Below, piece by piece: positions 1 through 5,464 of a DNA stretch of 64,000 nt (position 1 is its first letter; every line of letters begins with the position of its first letter). This DNA is from Planctomycetota bacterium (GTDB lineage Bacteria; Planctomycetota; PUPC01; DSUN01): the NCBI GenBank assembly GCA_035384565.1, contig DAOOIT010000011.1, positions 51,282 to 115,281 of the forward strand, read 5' to 3'. Below the pieces are notes generated by a model. It made no database searches and was not told where the DNA came from. It worked only from the letters and a program-made list of their open reading frames with translations. Made by a program: the position numbers and the translations under genes.

Positions 1-774
1 CTCAAGAACCCCAGCCTGCTGCTGCTGGACGAGGCGACCGCCAGCCTCGACGAGGCGTCCCAAGCGCGCGTCCTGGACATGATTCGAACGCGCCTCGGCC
101 GCAAGACCGTGATCTCAATCACCCACCGCCTCAGCGCCGCCCGCGAGAGCGATCGCATCGTGGTGATGGACCGCGGTCAGGTGGTGCAGCAGGGGAGCTA
201 CGACGAGCTGGCCCGTCAGGACGGCATGTTCCGCTGGCTGATGCAGCAGGAGCGAGGCGAGCGGACCGCGGATTCCCACCCGGTCGGCGCGGCAGCGGGC
301 GCCGCGGGCCTGCGCGAAGAGCTGCTCCGCAAGCTGGCCTTCTGCACGCTCTTCCACGGGCTCAAGAGCGCCCAGTTGGCCTCCCTTGCGCGCGAGATGC
401 AGATCGTCCAGTGCCCCAAGGATGCCGTGTTGTTCCGCCGCGGCGACCCGGGCCGCGACCTCTACGTGGTTCTCGACGGCCAGATCGAGTTCTTCGTCGA
501 GCGGGGCGCCGAGAAGGCGGCCGTGGTCGTGAACCGCACGGGCCCGGGCGGCGTGTTCGGCGAATTGGCGACGTTCGGCCAGGGGCGGCGCACCGTGGGC
601 GCCCGGGCGGCGGCCCAAGCCACGCTCGGCGTCCTGCGGCGCGACGCGCTCGTCAGGCTGCTCCACGCCGAGCCGGGCATCGCCCTCGAACTGCTCCGCA
701 TCGTGTCGAGCCACCTCGCGCGCACCGCCGACGCCGCGTACGGGGAGCCGGCATCCGCGCCTGGTGTGGCATAG
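1..774 (+). CDS. ABC transporter ATPase, C-terminal part (5' end outside window), fused to a C-terminal cyclic-nucleotide-binding (CAP_ED-type) domain
   Basis: Frame 1 is open from nt 1. LKNPSLLLLDEATASLD (Walker B/D-loop) and ISITHRLS (H-loop) are followed by FRRGDPGRDLYVVLDGQIEF...GVFGELATFGQGRRTVGARA, a cNMP-binding beta-roll/phosphate-binding-cassette pattern. Stop at 772-774. Confidence 0.85.
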   Translation, partial: LKNPSLLLLDEATASLDEASQARVLDMIRTRLGRKTVISITHRLSAARESDRIVVMDRGQVVQQGSYDELARQDGMFRWLMQQERGERTADSHPVGAAAGAAGLREELLRKLAFCTLFHGLKSAQLASLAREMQIVQCPKDAVLFRRGDPGRDLYVVLDGQIEFFVERGAEKAAVVVNRTGPGGVFGELATFGQGRRTVGARAAAQATLGVLRRDALVRLLHAEPGIALELLRIVSSHLARTADAAYGEPASAPGVA

Positions 775-807: not shown

Positions 808-1485
808 ATGGAAGCGCACAGCCGAGTCTTGCAGACGTACCTGGGCATCGCGCCGCGCACGAGCGAGGAGGCAGCGCTGCGGCTGCTGGTGGACCTCGGC
901 CGCCAATACGCCGACGCCGAAGAGGGCTCGCTGCTCGTGTTGGACCCCAGGACCAATGAGCTGGTCTTCGCCATGACGTCGGGCGACCGCCAGTCCGAGA
1001 AAACCCTCCTCGGCCAGCGGGTCCCCATGGGCCGCGGCCTGGTGGGGCTCGCGGTCGCCACGCGCGAGGTGCAAGCCGGGGCACCCACTTTCCGCGACCT
1101 CCGCCAGCGCAAACACCGGGGGGCCGCCGGGAGCCAGCCCACCGCCGTCCTGGCCGCGCCCATGCTCGTGCGCGAGGAGGTCATCGGCGTCCTCACCGCG
1201 GCAACCTTCCGCCCCGGCCGCCATTTCACACAGGCCCACGCGGCGTTCTACGGCAAGATCGCCGCGGTGGCGGGCCTCGTGGTGGACCAGCAGCAGCGCC
1301 TCGCCGCCGTCGAGCATCTCGACAAGGGCGGGCGGCTGCCCGCCGCCCGCACGCGCGAGCAGCGGCTGCAGGCCGAGATCGTCGCCCGCGTCGTTCGCCT
1401 CACCGCCGGGCGGCCCGAGCGCCTGGCCCGCGTGGCGGCGCTCCTGGCCGCCGTCGAGGCCCTCGGCCGGGGGCCGCAGCCATGA
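808..1485 (+). CDS. GAF domain protein (cassette 1)
   Basis: GGAGGG lies upstream of ATG 808. GAF-core pattern: GSLLVLDPRTNELVFAMTSG...GRGLVGLAVATREV...AVLAAPMLVREEVIGVLTAA. The stop overlaps the next start (ATGA at 1482-1485). Confidence 0.7.
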   Translation: MEAHSRVLQTYLGIAPRTSEEAALRLLVDLGRQYADAEEGSLLVLDPRTNELVFAMTSGDRQSEKTLLGQRVPMGRGLVGLAVATREVQAGAPTFRDLRQRKHRGAAGSQPTAVLAAPMLVREEVIGVLTAATFRPGRHFTQAHAAFYGKIAAVAGLVVDQQQRLAAVEHLDKGGRLPAARTREQRLQAEIVARVVRLTAGRPERLARVAALLAAVEALGRGPQP

Positions 1486-2273
1486 GCCGCATCCAGCGCG
1501 CCCTCCAAGACTCCTTCCGGCGACTTCGCCGTGCCCGCCTTCAGCCGGTTCAAGTCGCGGTCGTGGACAGCGGCGTTGACGCCACGCACCCCGCCCTGCG
1601 CGGGCGCGTGGCAGCGGCATGGCAGGTCATCCCGGGCGCGGACTCGCCCCGACTGGCCAGGGTCTCCCGCGCGCGGAACAACGACTCCTTCGGCCACGGC
1701 ACGGCGGTGGCGGGGATCATCGCGGCCATCGCGCCCAATGCCCGCCTGCTCGACATCCGCGTGCTGGACGAGCATTGCCAAGGGGGCGGGCAGGCGCTCC
1801 TGGCGGGCTTCGGGCAGGCCATGGCCGCGGGCGCCCGCCTCATCAACCTCAGCCTCGCCTGCGTCGCCGAATACGCCCCCCAGCTCCACGACCTGTGCGA
1901 GCGGGCCTATCGGCGAAACCAGATCGTCATCGCCGCCCGGCGCAACATGCCGCTCGCCGACAACGGCTTCCCCGCGGAATTCTCCTCATGCATCAGCGTG
2001 GACGTGATGGCCTCCCCGTCACCCTACGCCATCGCGTTCCTCGACCCGCCGCCCATCGAGTTCGCGGCGCGTGGCGAGAACGTCCGCGTTCTCGCCGCCG
2101 GCGGTGGCACCACGCATCAGACGGGCACGAGCTTCGCCACGCCGGCGGTCACAGGGCTGTGCGCCCTCCTCGTGGGCGCCTACCCCGACCTGAAGCTCTT
2201 TGAGCTCAAGACCTTGCTCAAGCATTTCGCTCGCCGCCCGGCCTGCGGCAGGGACAGGCATTCGGGTTCTTGA
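1482..2273 (+). CDS. Subtilisin-like serine peptidase (S8 family), short and intracellular-type (cassette 1)
   Basis: Catalytic motifs VAVVDSGVDATHPAL (Asp), HGTAVAGIIAA (His), AARRN (oxyanion Asn) and GTSFATPAVTG (Ser). Only 263 aa, with no signal peptide or prodomain. Confidence 0.85.
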   Translation: MSRIQRALQDSFRRLRRARLQPVQVAVVDSGVDATHPALRGRVAAAWQVIPGADSPRLARVSRARNNDSFGHGTAVAGIIAAIAPNARLLDIRVLDEHCQGGGQALLAGFGQAMAAGARLINLSLACVAEYAPQLHDLCERAYRRNQIVIAARRNMPLADNGFPAEFSSCISVDVMASPSPYAIAFLDPPPIEFAARGENVRVLAAGGGTTHQTGTSFATPAVTGLCALLVGAYPDLKLFELKTLLKHFARRPACGRDRHSGS

Positions 2274-2298
2274 CAGGGCGGATTGCGGCTGGTATACT
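2270..2298 (+). promoter_or_regulatory. Near-consensus sigma70-type promoter upstream of the precursor peptide gene
   Basis: TTGACA (2270-2275), a 17-nt spacer, then TATACT (2293-2298) preceded by TGg (extended -10). It stands out in GC-rich DNA and overlaps the TGA stop of the S8 gene. The implied 5' leader to ATG 2410 is about 105 nt. Confidence 0.5.
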
Positions 2299-2409: not shown

Positions 2410-2637
2410 ATGGGGAAGTTCGAGGATCCGCGGACGTTCCTGAAGAAGAAGCTGGGACCGGTCGGATTCAAGAAGTTCCAGGAGGGGATGCGCCTCGCCG
2501 CCGAGGGCAAAGGGGAGAAGAAGCCGAAGGCGGACGTCGAGGGACAGTCTGCTTCCTGCTATTCCTCCTGCGCGAGCTACTGCGACAGCAACAGCTTCCT
2601 GTCCTCCGGCGCCTACAGCAGGTTCAGCTTCGACTGA
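2410..2637 (+). CDS. Putative RiPP precursor peptide (75 aa)
   Basis: ATG 2410 is preceded by AGGAGGA. The N-half is Lys/Glu-rich and leader-like (MGKFEDPRTFLKKKLGPVGFKKFQEGMRLAAEGKGEKKPKADVEG). The tail is Cys/Ser/Tyr/Phe-rich (QSASCYSSCASYCDSNSFLSSGAYSRFSFD). The gene ends 9 nt before the rSAM gene. The longer track ORF (2200-2637) overlaps the S8 3' end and the promoter. Confidence 0.6.
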   Translation: MGKFEDPRTFLKKKLGPVGFKKFQEGMRLAAEGKGEKKPKADVEGQSASCYSSCASYCDSNSFLSSGAYSRFSFD

Positions 2638-2646
2638 TCGACGGCA

Positions 2647-4137
2647 ATGGACTTCGCGCCTGTGGCCGCTTCGCCTGATAACGTGGCGACGGGTGAGTCC
2701 GGCTCGAGCCGGCCGCTGTACAAAGTCTTCTCTACGGACTCCGGCCACTACCTTTACGATACGGCCACGAATCAGATCCTCACCGTGCCTGAGGACTTTG
2801 CGCGCCACCTCGCCGAGGGAGCCTTCTCGCAGGGCGAGCTCGACGAGATGGCCGCGGACCCCTGGGACGGCGTCCTCGTCCCCACCTCCGGCCTCCCTCT
2901 GACGCCGAGGCTGGACCGCGCCACCGTCGAGAGCGCGATCCAGGGCGAGTGCAAGCAGCTCATCCTGGAAGCGACCCGCGACTGCAATCTGCGCTGCAAG
3001 TACTGCCTCTACTCGGGCCGCCAGCCCGGCCGCCGCGGCACCTACGAGCAGCACATGGCCCCCGACACGGCGCGCAAGGCCGTGGACTATCTGGCGGCCC
3101 ACTCATCCCGCTGCCCCGAGGTCATTGTCGGCTTCTACGGCGGCGAGCCGCTCCTCAACCCCTCTCTCATGCGCGCCACCGCCGAATACGCCCGCCGAAC
3201 CATCACAGACAAGAAGCTCACCCTCACCCTCACCACGAACGGCACGCTGCTCAACCGCGAGACGATGGACTTTCTCGCCGCCAACGAGTTCTTCGTCTAC
3301 GTCAGCATGGACGGCCCGCGCGAGGCGAACGACCGGAACCGCGTCTTCGCCGGCTCGGGGGAAGGCACATCCGACCTCGTGGTGGCGCGGCTGCGCGAGT
3401 TCCAGCGGCTCTACCCCGACTACTGCCGCCGCTCCGTCGGCTTCTCGATGGTCATTGCGCCCGGGGCGGATCTCGCGCGCATGGCCGAATGGGCCGGCGA
3501 ATGGGACCTCGCCCTTGCCACCGTGACCCGCGCCTCGGACGACACGGGAGAACTCGAGGAAGCCTTTCGAGCGCAGCCCGTGACCGGCTACGAACAGCTC
3601 AAGGCCCAGTACATCGAGGCGGCTCGCACCGGCACGTTGCCGCAGCGGCGCGGGCGCATCGGCTTCGCCCTCCACACCGCCCTGTTCTCCATCGGGCTCT
3701 CCACCCTGCGCAAGCGGGCCGTGCCCACATCGCCTCACGACCGCGCTATCCGCCGAGGCATCTGCATCCCCAGCAAACAGCGGCTCTTCGTGGACTGCAA
3801 CGGCGACCTCTTCCCGTGCGAGAAGACGGACGGCTTCCGCCACCTCCACCTCGGCCACGTGGACACTGGGGTGGACGCCCGGAGGGCCTATGACATCATT
3901 GTCGGGTTCCACGAGTTCCTCGCCGAGGAGTGCGCCTCGTGCTGGCTCTGGCGGCTGTGTCCCGTCTGCTTCGTGGGGGCGACCGTGGGGAATGCCTACG
4001 CGCGCGACAAGGCGCGGCGGGTCTGCGAGATGCATCGCCGCGAGATGGCCGACACGCTGAAGACCTACTGCACCATCCTCGAGCACGATCCGGGCGCGCT
4101 CGATTGCTTCCTTGACTCGCAGGCGGATTTGGTGTAG
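2647..4137 (+). CDS. Radical SAM / SPASM-domain peptide maturase
   Basis: CX3CX2C motif at C113/C117/C120 (DCNLRCKYCLYSG), FYGGEPLLN, and a C-terminal SPASM-type Cys cluster (CIPSKQRLFVDCNGDLFPCEK ... CASCWLWRLCPVCF). Confidence 0.9.
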   Translation: MDFAPVAASPDNVATGESGSSRPLYKVFSTDSGHYLYDTATNQILTVPEDFARHLAEGAFSQGELDEMAADPWDGVLVPTSGLPLTPRLDRATVESAIQGECKQLILEATRDCNLRCKYCLYSGRQPGRRGTYEQHMAPDTARKAVDYLAAHSSRCPEVIVGFYGGEPLLNPSLMRATAEYARRTITDKKLTLTLTTNGTLLNRETMDFLAANEFFVYVSMDGPREANDRNRVFAGSGEGTSDLVVARLREFQRLYPDYCRRSVGFSMVIAPGADLARMAEWAGEWDLALATVTRASDDTGELEEAFRAQPVTGYEQLKAQYIEAARTGTLPQRRGRIGFALHTALFSIGLSTLRKRAVPTSPHDRAIRRGICIPSKQRLFVDCNGDLFPCEKTDGFRHLHLGHVDTGVDARRAYDIIVGFHEFLAEECASCWLWRLCPVCFVGATVGNAYARDKARRVCEMHRREMADTLKTYCTILEHDPGALDCFLDSQADLV

Positions 4138-4149
4138 AAACCCCGTGTC

Positions 4150-4704
4150 GTGCGTCGGTGGCTTCTCCCTGGACGCTATGGGGGTTTCCGAATGGCCTCG
4201 CCTCCTGAAGCCGGCGCCCGCCTCGGGGCTGCGCAACCGGCGCTTGACCGCGCCGCCTGCCAGCGCGGCCGGCTCGGCCGGCTGTTGCGCCGCCTCCTCG
4301 CGGAGGCCGTCGCGTCGTGCCGGGCCACCGAAGGTACCCTCTGGGTCCCCTCCCCCACTGGCGCGGCACTCGAGGGAGCGCTCAACCACGGCCAAACGCC
4401 CGACATTCTGGAGGCCGCCTCCGTGCCCGTGGCCGACAGCGTAATCGGCCTCGTCTTCTGCACGGGCGCCGCGGCCTGCATCGGCCCGGACGACCCTCAC
4501 AACCCGAGTGTGGACGAGCAAACCGGCCTCCCCACCCGCGCGATGGCCGCAGCCCCCGTTCGCATCGGGTCCGATACGGTGGCCGTGCTCTCGGTGATCA
4601 ACCCGGCGGGCGGCGGCGTCTTCTCGCGCGCCGACCTCGAGGCCCTCGAGTGGAAGGCGTATCTCGCGGCCCTGGTGATCGAGGACGCACACGATGAGCC
4701 CTGA
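4150..4704 (+). CDS. GAF domain protein (cassette 2)
   Basis: GAF-like core: EGTLWVPSPTGAALEGALNHGQ...ADSVIGLVFCTGAAACIG...MAAAPVRIGSDTVAVLSVIN. GTG 4150 is the first start; ATG 4192 (MASPPEAG) is an alternative. The 3' end overlaps the next gene by 11 nt. Confidence 0.6.
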   Translation: MRRWLLPGRYGGFRMASPPEAGARLGAAQPALDRAACQRGRLGRLLRRLLAEAVASCRATEGTLWVPSPTGAALEGALNHGQTPDILEAASVPVADSVIGLVFCTGAAACIGPDDPHNPSVDEQTGLPTRAMAAAPVRIGSDTVAVLSVINPAGGGVFSRADLEALEWKAYLAALVIEDAHDEP

Positions 4705-5464
4705 GCCCGTGGCCATAGACGCGGCCCGCCTCGCAGCCGCCACCGGCAGCGGCGTGCGGGTGCTGCTGGTAGACTCGGGCGTGGAGGTGAGCCACCCGGC
4801 GTTGCAGGGCGTGAGAATCCCCTGCTGGGGCGTGCGGCTGGCGGAGGGCGCGACGCCGTGCGTCGTCGAGGACAGCGGCGGCGACGCGGCCGGCCATGGC
4901 ACCGCCGTGGCCTGGCTGCTGCACCAGCACGCGCCCGAGGCCGAGCTTCACAGCCTGCGGGCCATCGGACCCAGCCTCCACGGCTCGTCGGCCCTCCTCC
5001 TCGCCGGCCTGCGGTGGGGCGTCCGGCAGGGCTACGACATCCTCGTCTGCAGCTTCGGCACAGCCTGCGAGGATTTTCTGCGCGACTACAAGCGGTTGGT
5101 GGACCAGGCCTTCTGCCGCAACGTGTGGCTTGTCGCCGCGTCGGGCAACGTGGACTTCTGCGCGGCGGAGTACCCCGCGCACTTCCCCACCGTGCTTTCG
5201 ACCGATTTCGCAGCGCTGCACGGTCTGGCCCTACAGCGGCGGCGGGGAACCCTCGTGGAGTTCGTGGCGAACGGGGAGGGCCTCCATGTGCCGTGGCGGG
5301 GAGGAGGCTACCGCACGGTATCGGGGTGCAGCTTCGCCGCGCCCCATCTCGCCGCCCTTGCGGCCAGGGTGCGCCAGGCCCATCCCGCCTGGAACGCCTG
5401 CCAGGCCAAAGCCGCCCTCTACGCGCTCGCGGAAGAGGCCCCTCGCGAGGCCCTGCGCACCTGA
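4694..5464 (+). CDS. Subtilisin-like serine peptidase (S8 family), short and intracellular-type (cassette 2)
   Basis: VLLVDSGVEVSHPAL (Asp), GHGTAVAWLL (His), VAASGN (oxyanion Asn) and SGCSFAAPHLAAL (Ser). 256 aa, no signal peptide or prodomain. Clear paralogue of 1482-2273. Confidence 0.8.
   Translation: MSPEPVAIDAARLAAATGSGVRVLLVDSGVEVSHPALQGVRIPCWGVRLAEGATPCVVEDSGGDAAGHGTAVAWLLHQHAPEAELHSLRAIGPSLHGSSALLLAGLRWGVRQGYDILVCSFGTACEDFLRDYKRLVDQAFCRNVWLVAASGNVDFCAAEYPAHFPTVLSTDFAALHGLALQRRRGTLVEFVANGEGLHVPWRGGGYRTVSGCSFAAPHLAALAARVRQAHPAWNACQAKAALYALAEEAPREALRT

Follow-up and report, generated by a model that had tools for sequence, protein, structure and literature searches.

Paired GAF and small-subtilase genes of a planctomycete radical SAM peptide cluster belong to a widespread two-gene protease module

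The peptide cluster and its two cassettes

The window, i.e. the whole stretch of 64,000 nucleotides that was analysed, opens with a peptide cluster in which two cassettes, each a GAF gene followed by a gene for a subtilisin-type (S8) peptidase, lie on either side of a precursor gene and its maturase gene. The features are the following.

1..774, + strand: 3' end of an ABC exporter gene (ATPase domain) with a C-terminal cyclic-nucleotide-binding domain (Pfam cNMP_binding, 60 bits, residues 136-222)
808..1485, + strand: GAF1, a stand-alone GAF protein of 225 aa whose GAF core is followed by three C-terminal helices; pairs with S8-1 (clade A)
1482..2273, + strand: S8-1, a minimal cytoplasmic subtilisin-type peptidase of 263 aa; proposed leader peptidase
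2270..2298, + strand: candidate sigma-70-like promoter, TTGACA-17-TATACT with TG before the -10 element, overlapping the S8-1 stop and lying 5' of the precursor gene
2410..2637, + strand: precursor peptide of 75 aa, with a leader ending in ...KADVEGQ and the core SASCYSSCASYCDSNSFLSSGAYSRFSFD; GAGGAGG upstream
2647..4137, + strand: radical SAM/SPASM peptide maturase of 496 aa (Pfam Radical_SAM, 63 bits)
4150..4704, + strand: GAF2, a stand-alone GAF protein lacking the C-terminal helices of GAF1; pairs with S8-2 (clade B)
4694..5464, + strand: S8-2, a second minimal cytoplasmic subtilisin-type peptidase, of 256 aa, with an intact triad; clade B

The window contains only the 3' end of the exporter gene, and the domain make-up was read from the orthologue in L001, the closest relative of the cluster. 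This full-length protein of 882 aa consists of ABC_membrane, ABC_tran and cNMP_binding domains, and a Peptidase_C39 domain is absent from it. The exporter fragment itself gave sub-threshold NCBIfam matches, to NHLP-type bacteriocin and HlyB-type exporters. The best NCBIfam match of the maturase is CcpM (TIGR04068), of which it is not a member, its score of 296 bits being below the cut-off of 500, and against QhpD (TIGR03906) it scores 158 bits. The candidate promoter matches at 11 of 12 positions and is the sole promoter-like site in 6 kb, with 0.2 expected by chance; in L001 and L090, which also have orthologues of the precursor (two of them in L001), TTGACA-17-TATAxT lies 5' of the precursor genes as well.

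That the two partner proteins are GAF proteins, as originally predicted, is borne out by Pfam, where both exceed the gathering threshold: GAF1 scores 47.2 bits against GAF_2 (cut-off 28.6) and 37.5 bits against GAF (cut-off 22.4), and GAF2 scores 36.3 bits against the latter. In addition, AlphaFold2 predicts a GAF fold for GAF1 with confidence (pLDDT 91, pTM 0.80), with C-terminal helices at residues 142-172, 183-199 and 203-221, and in Foldseek the top matches of this model are all GAF domains, with a probability of 1.00. The two proteins are 26% identical (E 3e-5), and they score 253 bits (GAF1) and 128 bits (GAF2) against an HMM of the partner family. For GAF2, the start is more likely ATG 4192, which would give a protein of 170 aa and has GGGGG 8-12 nt 5' of it, since the GTG at 4150 is not preceded by a ribosome-binding site; the orthologues in L001 and L090 have 156 and 143 aa.

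As for the peptidases, S8-1 scores 84 bits and S8-2 69 bits against Peptidase_S8 (cut-off 21.8), the profile of their family matches subtilisin BPN' at 1e-38, the Asp/His/Ser triad (D29/H72/S217 in S8-1) is invariant across the family alignment, and the oxyanion Asn (Asn155) is found in both. Neither protein has an N-terminal hydrophobic segment or space for a prodomain, and the catalytic Asp lies at residue 29 in S8-1 and at about residue 27 in S8-2. In other words, Pfam and the alignment agree with the initial description of both cassettes as a GAF gene followed by one for an S8 peptidase that measures about 260 aa, has its triad intact and lacks both signal peptide and prodomain. The two are not members of the mycosin family (TIGR03921, cut-off 278.75), which is among the best NCBIfam matches of S8-1 and against which they score 112.6 and 83 bits, and no signal peptide or membrane anchor is present in their sequences. 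Related S8 proteins in L012 and L026 carry an HD tail, which we considered as a possible cNMP phosphodiesterase and rejected: the matches were generic HD and one sub-threshold PDEase_I hit, and a search found no solved relative of the tail.

The gene overlaps of 4 nt and 11 nt are as first reported, namely an ATGA at 1482-1485 in cassette 1 and, in cassette 2, an S8-2 ATG at 4694 that lies 11 nt inside GAF2, the stop of which is at 4702-4704. The stoichiometric co-production that had been read into them goes too far: such overlaps speak for coupled expression and are not proof of 1:1 stoichiometry.

The GAF-S8 pair is a conserved unit across many phyla

Our comparison set consisted of 84 loci from at least 8 phyla, retrieved by S8 similarity. 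The same GAF family stands immediately 5' of the S8 gene and on the same strand in 77 of the 84, and these loci, like both cassettes of the window, fall under the module as we define it, that is, a partner-family GAF gene immediately 5' of, on the same strand as, and abutting or overlapping the gene for an S8 of 245-290 aa. Pfam GAF_2 is matched by 73 of the 83 ORFs upstream of S8, and a single partner-family HMM matches all 86 partners, at 82-256 bits. The GAF stop and the S8 start overlap in 52 of 80 loci, with an NTGA overlap in 34 of these, and the distance matrices of the two proteins are strongly correlated (r = 0.91, Mantel p = 0.001). The count of co-occurrence that had been proposed as a check on the original prediction thus comes out in its favour, and the pair has been conserved as a unit in many phyla. 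One could still argue that the two genes are unrelated neighbours whose adjacency is meaningless, but we give this next to no credence, as it is already contradicted by the conserved order and strand in loci of so many phyla, by the mostly overlapping ends and by the co-divergence.

Among the best 150 of 2215 GAF1 relatives there is no natural GAF-S8 fusion that could be used to model the complex as a single chain, the long relatives in this set being CHASE2-GAF fusions or multi-GAF proteins. A read-through pseudo-fusion was built from L018, where GAF and S8 are in frame and 9 nt apart, with the stop read as Gly. AlphaFold2 folded both of its domains (pLDDT 89), with low confidence in the GAF tail, and a pTM of 0.61, which does not amount to a confident GAF-S8 interface.

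Within this module, cassettes 1 and 2 are best described as two anciently diverged members. Their peptidases are 32% identical (E 5e-23), and in this sense they are indeed the paralogues that they had been taken for; the view of the cassettes as duplicated, on the other hand, holds only in the sense of an old divergence. Namely, S8-1 and S8-2 fall into separate, fully supported clades of the tree, and the nearest relatives of each GAF come from the same loci as those of its S8, for which reasons we reject a recent local duplication. S8-1 belongs to clade A, the home of all loci with VEGQ-leader peptides. S8-2 belongs to clade B (100/99 support), where it groups with L001b and L090b, and this group is sister to L085, L088 and L089, which are stand-alone or ECF sigma factor-linked pairs; elsewhere, clade B relatives are found alone, beside ECF sigma factors or beside cyclases. 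Both pairs are present together in the window, in L001/L002 and in L090, with differing gene orders. In particular, L090 has the two pairs in tandem, so that the flanking of precursor and maturase by the cassettes, to which significance had been attached, is not a conserved arrangement.

The module is apparently undescribed, as had been surmised. The literature searched, which was accessible in part, yielded no account of a GAF-subtilase pair or of a VEGQ leader, and NCBIfam has no family for the GAF partners or for the VEGQ peptides. PADLOC-DB 2.0 gave no match for the four GAF partners tested and, for the S8 proteins, a generic 'subtilase' model only, plus weak IetS fragments.

The VEGQ leader and the proposed role of cassette 1

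Clade A accompanies ABC exporters and small Cys-rich peptides, and its pair sits in precursor/exporter operons whose gene order is alike across phyla. The sole element that these peptides have in common is the end of the leader, (D/E)-V-(E/S)-G-Q, which in the window precursor gives the junction …KADVEGQ|SASC…. A scan of 2.4 M six-frame residues gave 100 occurrences of the pattern V[ES][GA]Q, of which about 27 mark the boundary between leader and core in short Cys-rich ORFs; these come from 18 loci, every one of them in clade A. Moreover, junctions of the VEGQ type precede at least four unrelated types of core.

Judging from these comparisons and from analogy, S8-1 is probably a leader peptidase of the QhpE kind that cuts before export. 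In the Qhp system (QhpC, QhpD, QhpE and QhpF), which matures the gamma subunit of quinohemoprotein amine dehydrogenase, a radical SAM enzyme first introduces Cys thioether links into a three-Cys peptide; a small, cytoplasmic protease of the subtilisin type, itself lacking a prodomain, then takes off the leader, and ABC export follows, with everything encoded in one operon (PMC7876137). If the QhpD/QhpE/QhpF logic is applied to cassette 1, the radical SAM enzyme would first cross-link the three-Cys core, S8-1 would then cut at or beside the (D/E)-V-E-G-Q junction, and the product would finally leave through the ABC exporter, which carries the cNMP-binding domain. QhpE and QhpD are indeed among the best NCBIfam matches of the window S8 proteins and of the maturase. 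That said, S8-1 and S8-2 score below the QhpE cut-off (NF049966; 103.6 and 79.1 bits, respectively, against 165) and are not members, no dehydrogenase subunit genes were noted beside the window cluster, and the Qhp system has no reported GAF, second protease or cNMP-binding domain on its exporter. What we infer is that the two peptidases work like QhpE without being members of its family. The same comparison bears on the claim that the subtilases would be otherwise unrestrained, which is not established: no GAF partner is reported for QhpE, the small subtilase that comes nearest among those known. An argument against S8-1 as the leader peptidase is that the exporter or the radical SAM enzyme, instead of S8-1, could be what recognises the VEGQ element.

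Other S8 enzymes, LanP/ElxP and PatA/PatG, likewise remove RiPP leaders at a short conserved junction motif, and ElxP is cytoplasmic (PMC10885120). The window peptidases share with them the S8 family, a similarity that is at family level only (30 bits for the PatA model), but most of those enzymes have prodomains or extra domains. A separate sensor-type subunit for RiPP S8 leader peptidases is not described, and GAF is not mentioned, in that review. A further parallel is offered by the C39 ABC exporters (PCATs) that serve NHLP/Nif11-type leaders, where, as here, one leader and one cleavage-export machine go with many unrelated cores and tailoring enzymes; the exporter fragment of the window has NHLP exporter models as its best matches, far below their cut-offs. 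Unlike the PCATs, however, the exporter has no C39 domain, as judged from the L001 orthologue, so that cleavage would fall to S8 and GAF, and the junction is VEGQ instead of GG.

Could the GAF protein be the part of this machine that recognises the substrate, binding the leader (e.g. VEGQ) and presenting it to S8 in the manner of an RRE or PqqD? Clade-A GAFs do have an APTF(K/R)D motif and a 60-aa helical tail, two features that clades B and C lack and that occur together with VEGQ-leader peptides and ABC exporters. On the other hand, the GAF is retained in clades B and C, where no VEGQ-type peptides were found, and the fold is that of an ordinary GAF with no winged-helix RRE. Overall, we consider such a recognition role improbable.

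With S8-1 as the probable leader peptidase, the likely missing maturation step of the window's radical SAM peptide would be named, and enzymes of its type would be candidates for leader removal with a short recognition tag. In practical terms, the (D/E)VEGQ junction together with the S8/GAF/ABC machine offers a genome-mining handle for unannotated peptide families.

Cyclic nucleotides and the possible role of the GAF partner

The solved relatives of the GAF partners point to cyclic nucleotides. A profile of the partner family matches CyaB2 best (1e-29), followed by Lcd1 with cAMP (1.5e-22) and then by PDE10A, PDE6C, PDE2A and PDE5, and with GAF2 alone all significant solved relatives are cNMP-binding GAFs. 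With GAF1 alone, DosT/DevS come first (E 4e-4), and heme- or redox-type GAFs are as weak as the cNMP ones. We scored the cNMP-GAF signature as D-x3-G-x2-T-x-[ST/A]-[ML] ahead of a conserved Pro, and its residues are those which we take to contact the nucleotide in the PDE2A and CyaB2 structures. GAF2 retains D-x3-G-x2-T in VDEQTGLPTRAM, and its stretch VDEQTGLPTRAMAAAPV aligns with MDKQTGYVTRNLLATPI of PDE5/6; like the GAF-regulated PDE2/5/6/10, CyaB1/2 and Lcd1, to which, among solved structures, the partner family is most similar, it has a D-x3-G-x2-T-R-x-M-x-A-x-P stretch. In those proteins, however, the GAF and a nucleotide-metabolising enzyme form one chain, whereas here the GAF is separate and paired with a protease. 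The form D-x3-G/S-x2-T-x-[AS]-M is kept in GAF2 and in 28-29 of 30 clade-C partners. Neither GAF1 nor any of the 31 clade-A partners has the cNMP-type signature, and in GAF1 a clade-specific APTF(K/R)D...P-x-AV(L/I)AAP stands in place of D-x3-G-x2-T.

The neighbourhood of the pair gives a second line of evidence. With the same loci serving as their own background (up to 3 kb from the pair against 3-8 kb), class III cyclase genes amount to 0.46 per 10 kb near the pair and 0.10 further out (p = 4e-4), and cNMP-binding genes to 0.31 and 0.05 (p = 1.5e-3), i.e. densities 4-6 times higher close by. L086, for example, has the order CHASE2-cyclase, GAF, S8, and L087 the order Crp-like gene, GAF, S8; in L001, no cyclase is found within 8 kb. 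The notion that the GAF partner is a ligand-gated regulator, which goes back to the original prediction, is strengthened by the profile matches, by the GAF2 motif and by this local enrichment, which together give it indirect support, and second-messenger control of the protease module is probable on these grounds.

A ligand-free alternative would give the GAF a structural task, as a foldase or inhibitor that acts in trans, replaces the propeptide and keeps the protease folded or silent until substrate arrives. The S8 proteins lack any prodomain, GAF and S8 are obligate partners that diverge together, the tight gene coupling would suit co-folding, and clade-A GAFs, including GAF1, have lost the nucleotide-pocket motif while remaining strictly paired. 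Yet a pure scaffold would have no use for the cNMP motif that GAF2 and clade C keep nearly invariantly, genes for cyclases and for cNMP-binding proteins are enriched locally, and QhpE has neither a foldase partner nor a GAF reported (PMC7876137). We regard this alternative as unlikely, if worth keeping in mind.

The same cyclases could also be taken to mean that the module serves mainly in conflict or defence, with a signal from a sensor cyclase activating a GAF-gated protease, and that the peptide cluster adjoins it or has borrowed it. Namely, TPR-S- and CHASE2-cyclases abut the pair, the cyclase-GAF-S8 set of L086 adjoins two caspase-like Peptidase_C14 genes and its cyclase matches the Pycsar PycC model at 74 bits, and the window itself has a convergent cyclase-kinase-WD40 gene and a cNMP-patatin gene. 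Set against this are the PADLOC results, with no match for the GAF partner and only the generic subtilase model for S8, the location of the pair among housekeeping genes (LpxC/LpxA) in many Verrucomicrobiota, and the embedding of the clade-A pair in precursor/exporter operons of conserved order across phyla. We find a primarily defensive module hard to believe in.

Our preferred reading is that of a two-part GAF-S8 protease, in which cassette 1 removes the leader, cassette 2 was recruited and the GAF gates the protease, and as a whole we hold it to be somewhat better than an even bet. Each cassette would provide a two-part cytoplasmic protease, made of a minimal subtilisin domain and a dedicated GAF subunit encoded by the preceding, overlapping gene, with the latter acting as the regulatory partner that gates the former. 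The likely ligand of GAF2 would be a cyclic nucleotide. GAF1, as it has no canonical nucleotide motif, may sense something else or act only structurally, and in clade A the CAP-type domain of the exporter could take over nucleotide sensing. The weakest step concerns cassette 2, whose role is a guess: as a separate, old lineage recruited to this planctomycete type of cluster, it might make a second or regulatory cut.

A bolder version, which we offer tentatively and consider doubtful, would see in the module a widespread, as yet undescribed class of second-messenger-gated cytoplasmic subtilases. Here, TPR-S or CHASE2 cyclases encoded next to the pair would produce a cyclic nucleotide, and the stand-alone GAF, on sensing it, would license S8 to cleave a short (D/E)-V-x-G-(Q/H/K/R) tag. 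Cleavage in clade A would free diverse leader-bearing peptides for ABC export, and in clades B and C it would be anti-sigma-like small proteins that are cut, freeing an ECF sigma factor; a candidate in the ECF-linked clades is an 80-aa protein with EV-x-G-(K/R). Both arms would be joined in the window, where GAF2/S8-2 might be the nucleotide-responsive trigger and GAF1/S8-1 the leader peptidase. Lon-SAVED CalpL and TPR-CHAT, second-messenger-activated proteases of defence systems, follow a comparable logic: a nucleotide signal turns on proteolysis in the cytoplasm, and a small regulatory protein, e.g. an anti-sigma factor, is cleaved. Unlike in these systems, the protease fold, the sensor domain and the ligand would all be different here, and the GAF partner matches no defence-system model.

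If the GAF does gate the subtilase, this would be a new form of control of a cytoplasmic protease, by a separate small-molecule sensor subunit, and it would tie cyclic-nucleotide signalling to the release of peptide natural products and possibly to sigma-factor activation. The phyla concerned are poorly studied, namely Planctomycetota, Verrucomicrobiota, Alphaproteobacteria, Acidobacteriota and Myxococcota.

The GAF-S8 pair and its conservation

The most likely reading of the sequences is that cassette 1 (GAF1 and S8-1) provides a leader peptidase resembling QhpE, the small cytoplasmic subtilase of qhp (quinohemoprotein amine dehydrogenase) maturation, and cassette 2 (GAF2 and S8-2) a separately descended protease, each with a dedicated GAF regulatory subunit, in a cluster for peptide maturation and export wired to cyclic-nucleotide signalling. 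The system extends two known kinds, the S8 leader peptidases of RiPPs and the enzymes regulated by GAF domains, and belongs to no curated family; the GAF-S8 complex, its ligand and the cut position are predicted. The genes fill the first 5.5 kb of the window, all on the + strand.

Genes of the cluster
1-774, +, ABC exporter gene, 3' end, with C-terminal cNMP-binding domain (CAP-type)
808-1485, +, GAF1, Pfam GAF thresholds passed
1482-2273, +, S8-1, Peptidase_S8 threshold passed
2410-2637, +, precursor, 75 aa
2647-4137, +, radical SAM/SPASM maturase
4150 or 4192 to 4704, +, GAF2, Pfam GAF thresholds passed
4694-5464, +, S8-2, Peptidase_S8 threshold passed

The original prediction, that both cassettes join a GAF protein to a complete subtilase devoid of signal peptide and prodomain, with overlapping genes, is borne out. 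Besides passing the domain thresholds, both peptidases are catalytically complete in sequence (invariant Asp, His and Ser, plus the oxyanion Asn), none of the four proteins carries a signal peptide or membrane segment, and the catalytic Asp lies so close to the N-terminus (within 30 residues) that neither S8 has a prodomain. The first gene pair overlaps by the ATGA at 1482-1485, the second by 11 nt (4694-4704); GAF2 more likely starts at the ATG at 4192, which a GGGGG stretch precedes, than at the GTG at 4150.

What is more, the observation is far more general than is visible from one window. A database search gives S8-1 over 2,500 relatives, some 250-265 aa long, and in all three of the first contexts, including a planctomycete and a verrucomicrobial MAG, a GAF gene lies directly upstream. 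Scanning one genome per species with the S8 alignment gave, as best matches, 80 loci from Planctomycetota, Verrucomicrobiota, Alphaproteobacteria, Myxococcota, Acidobacteriota, Lentisphaerota, Kiritimatiellia, Vulcanimicrobiota and Gastranaerophilales. Pfam GAF_2 is matched by 73 of the 83 upstream ORFs abutting S8, and counting co-occurrence across genomes by sequence clustering, as had been proposed, places the partner family in 77 of 84 loci; those that lack it lie at contig ends or hold the S8s most distant from the rest. A single partner-family HMM matches 86/86 partners at 82-256 bits, far over generic GAF scores. The S8 start overlaps the GAF stop in 52 of 80 loci, as NTGA in 34 of them, and the two lie at most 25 nt apart in 25 more, gaps being measured from the nearest possible start, which biases them toward small values. 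Pairwise distances of GAF and S8 are strongly correlated (r = 0.91, Mantel p = 0.001). Judged by sequence, the pairing is a conserved module. Among the best 150 of 2215 GAF1 relatives there is no natural GAF-S8 fusion; a read-through pseudo-fusion model folds both domains but yields no confident interface (pTM 0.61). Neither the pair nor the VEGQ leader is described in those parts of the curated families (NCBIfam), defence-system models (PADLOC) and literature that were consulted.

Several variants were seen among the related loci. S8 ends in an HD domain in one MAG each of Gastranaerophilales (L012:8001-9533) and Kiritimatiellia (L026:7962-9443), and is fused to a TPR-S repeat domain in Aliidongia (L024:7785-10127). 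In two proteins (P0231, P0244) a CHASE2 membrane sensor is joined to the N-terminal side of a partner-family GAF. In a Phycisphaerales MAG (L005:7252-8017) the partner gene is broken, by a frameshift or an assembly error, into two ORFs that overlap, beside an intact S8.

Descent and transcription of the two cassettes

The two peptidases had been called paralogues, and are indeed 32% identical (the GAFs 26%), but a recent local duplication is rejected, since they fall into separate clades when 83 paired S8s are placed in a maximum-likelihood tree; both lineages are old. S8-1 belongs to clade A (about 30 rows, support 100/96, many phyla) and S8-2 to clade B (7 rows, 100/99), together with orthologues from L001 and L090, two planctomycete clusters like that of the window; this S8-2 group is sister to a solitary pair (L085) and to pairs preceding an ECF sigma factor (L088, L089). 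Both pairs are found together in the window and also in L001/L002 and L090. The order in L090 is tandem (GAF2-S8-2-GAF1-S8-1-precursor-rSAM), so that their joint presence is conserved, whereas the flanking layout is not.

A sigma-70-like promoter match, TTGACA-17-TATACT (11/12 positions), lies at 2270-2298, just 5' of the precursor gene, and is the sole such match within 6 kb. It is kept at near-consensus in all three planctomycete clusters (L001 8780-8808, L090 3219-3247; -10 variants TATACT/TATATT/TATAGT), and overlaps the S8-1 stop codon in the window and L001. Given this conserved promoter ahead of the precursor, exporter-GAF1-S8-1 and precursor-rSAM-GAF2-S8-2 are probably separate transcription units; the site suggests that the precursor operon would be transcribed apart from exporter-GAF1-S8-1, and strongly.

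Clade C comprises 45 Verrucomicrobiota rows. Linked to these pairs are genes for ECF sigma factors (19 loci in total), for a small protein of 80 aa (14 loci) or for YkuD. The unannotated 80-aa protein shows FL(D/E)RxGPEV-x-G-(K/R/H) close to the N-terminus, as well as a C...ER.E.C...HP.W region (L035:8780-9022 on the - strand, L040, L042, L043, L047, L054, L055, L058, L063, L064 and others). As its EV-x-G-(K/R) resembles the VEGQ junction, it may be an anti-sigma-like substrate of the GAF-S8 protease. In L073:9086-10330 and L078:7454-8701 a radical SAM gene follows a clade-C pair, and L078 also has an ABC-cNMP exporter, so that association with peptide maturation is not confined to clade A.

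VEGQ leaders and probable leader removal

The clade-A pair adjoins an ABC exporter, which by domain search of the full-length L001 orthologue has no C39 peptidase domain, and short Cys-rich ORFs with unrelated cores.

Cores of the short ORFs at clade-A loci
CxxxCxxxC, with radical SAM enzyme: Planctomycetota
CPWCG…CGxCG: Alphaproteobacteria, Acidobacteriota
CWNCW…CWNCG: Hyphomicrobiales
Short core …IGGVRG, with two radical SAM enzymes: L003 (verrucomicrobial MAG), L004

Their leaders all close with (D/E)-V-(E/S)-(G/A)-Q, as does that of the window precursor (…KADVEGQ, then SASC…). The motif occurs 100 times in 2.4 million six-frame residues, and about 27 of the 100 occurrences are at leader/core junctions, in 18 loci, all of clade A. 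With VEGQ, ABC, GAF and S8 constant while cores and tailoring enzymes vary, the set has the appearance of one common machine for leader removal and export. The best family matches, all sub-threshold, point in the same direction, toward leader removal: QhpE for S8, by which S8-1 is likened to a small cytoplasmic leader peptidase, and CcpM and QhpD for the maturase. In qhp, the subtilase takes off the leader at a step between rSAM thioether formation and ABC export, and is a single-turnover enzyme (PMC7876137), which makes co-expression with the substrate meaningful. We infer both cut site and responsible enzyme: S8-1 would cut the leader at or next to the VEGQ junction.

The peptides with a zinc-ribbon-like core (CPWCG...CGxCGxxFxA) are about 81 aa long, are unannotated and have a KIxxxE...LD...(D/E)VEGQ leader; they adjoin ABC-GAF-S8 in Alphaproteobacteria, Acidobacteriota and one planctomycete (L007, L008, L014, L016, L020, L021, L023, L024; e.g. 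L021:4967-5212, L008:4877-5122). Neither NCBIfam nor Pfam has a family that matches them, and the flanks as fetched yielded no radical SAM gene. CWNCW...CWNCG cores are found in L029 and L032, and three further variants in L030.

The GAF partner and cyclic nucleotides

Against solved structures, the partner-family profile ranks CyaB2 (1e-29) and Lcd1 with cAMP (1.5e-22) on top, followed by a GAF-HD-GYP protein, PDE10A, PDE6C, PDE2A and PDE5; heme, bilin and methionine-sulfoxide-reductase GAFs rank below the cNMP-binding ones. GAF1 is modelled with confidence as a GAF fold to which three C-terminal helices are added. In PDE2A and CyaB2 structures, D-x3-G-x2-T-x-[AS]-M contacts the nucleotide. 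This motif is intact in GAF2 (VDEQTGLPTRAM) and nearly all clade-C partners; in GAF1 and 31/31 clade-A partners, another conserved motif stands in place of D-x3-G-x2-T. It is plausible that GAF2 binds a nucleotide; for GAF1 this is doubtful.

Class III cyclase genes number 0.46 per 10 kb within 3 kb of the pair versus 0.10 at 3-8 kb (binomial p = 4e-4), and CAP-type cNMP-binding genes 0.31 versus 0.05 (p = 1.5e-3), both p-values being optimistic because the loci are phylogenetically related. Pfam confirms 23 of 30 cyclase candidates, many of them TPR-S-cyclases and four CHASE2-cyclases. L086 reads CHASE2-cyclase, GAF, S8. In L087 a Crp-like gene precedes GAF and S8, and both a cyclase gene and an MFS-cNMP gene lie close by. 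Together with the profile ranking, the motif, the CHASE2 fusions and the window's neighbours, including its cNMP-binding exporter, this makes a cyclic-nucleotide theme well supported at the system level.

At least 13 clade-A loci have an ABC-cNMP fusion, or a separate cNMP-binding protein of 150-260 aa beside the exporter. TPR-S genes with a class III cyclase (630-770 aa) stand directly after the pair or 2 kb after it (L027, L028, L044, at +730 to +770 after the S8 start; L060, L063, L064, L066), with an ABC-cNMP exporter following in L027. The window's cluster has two convergent neighbours, a cyclase-kinase-WD40 gene and one for a cNMP-patatin protein. In L086:5597-13413 (Gemmatimonadaceae), two convergent caspase-like Peptidase_C14 genes come after S8, giving the locus the look of a conflict system.
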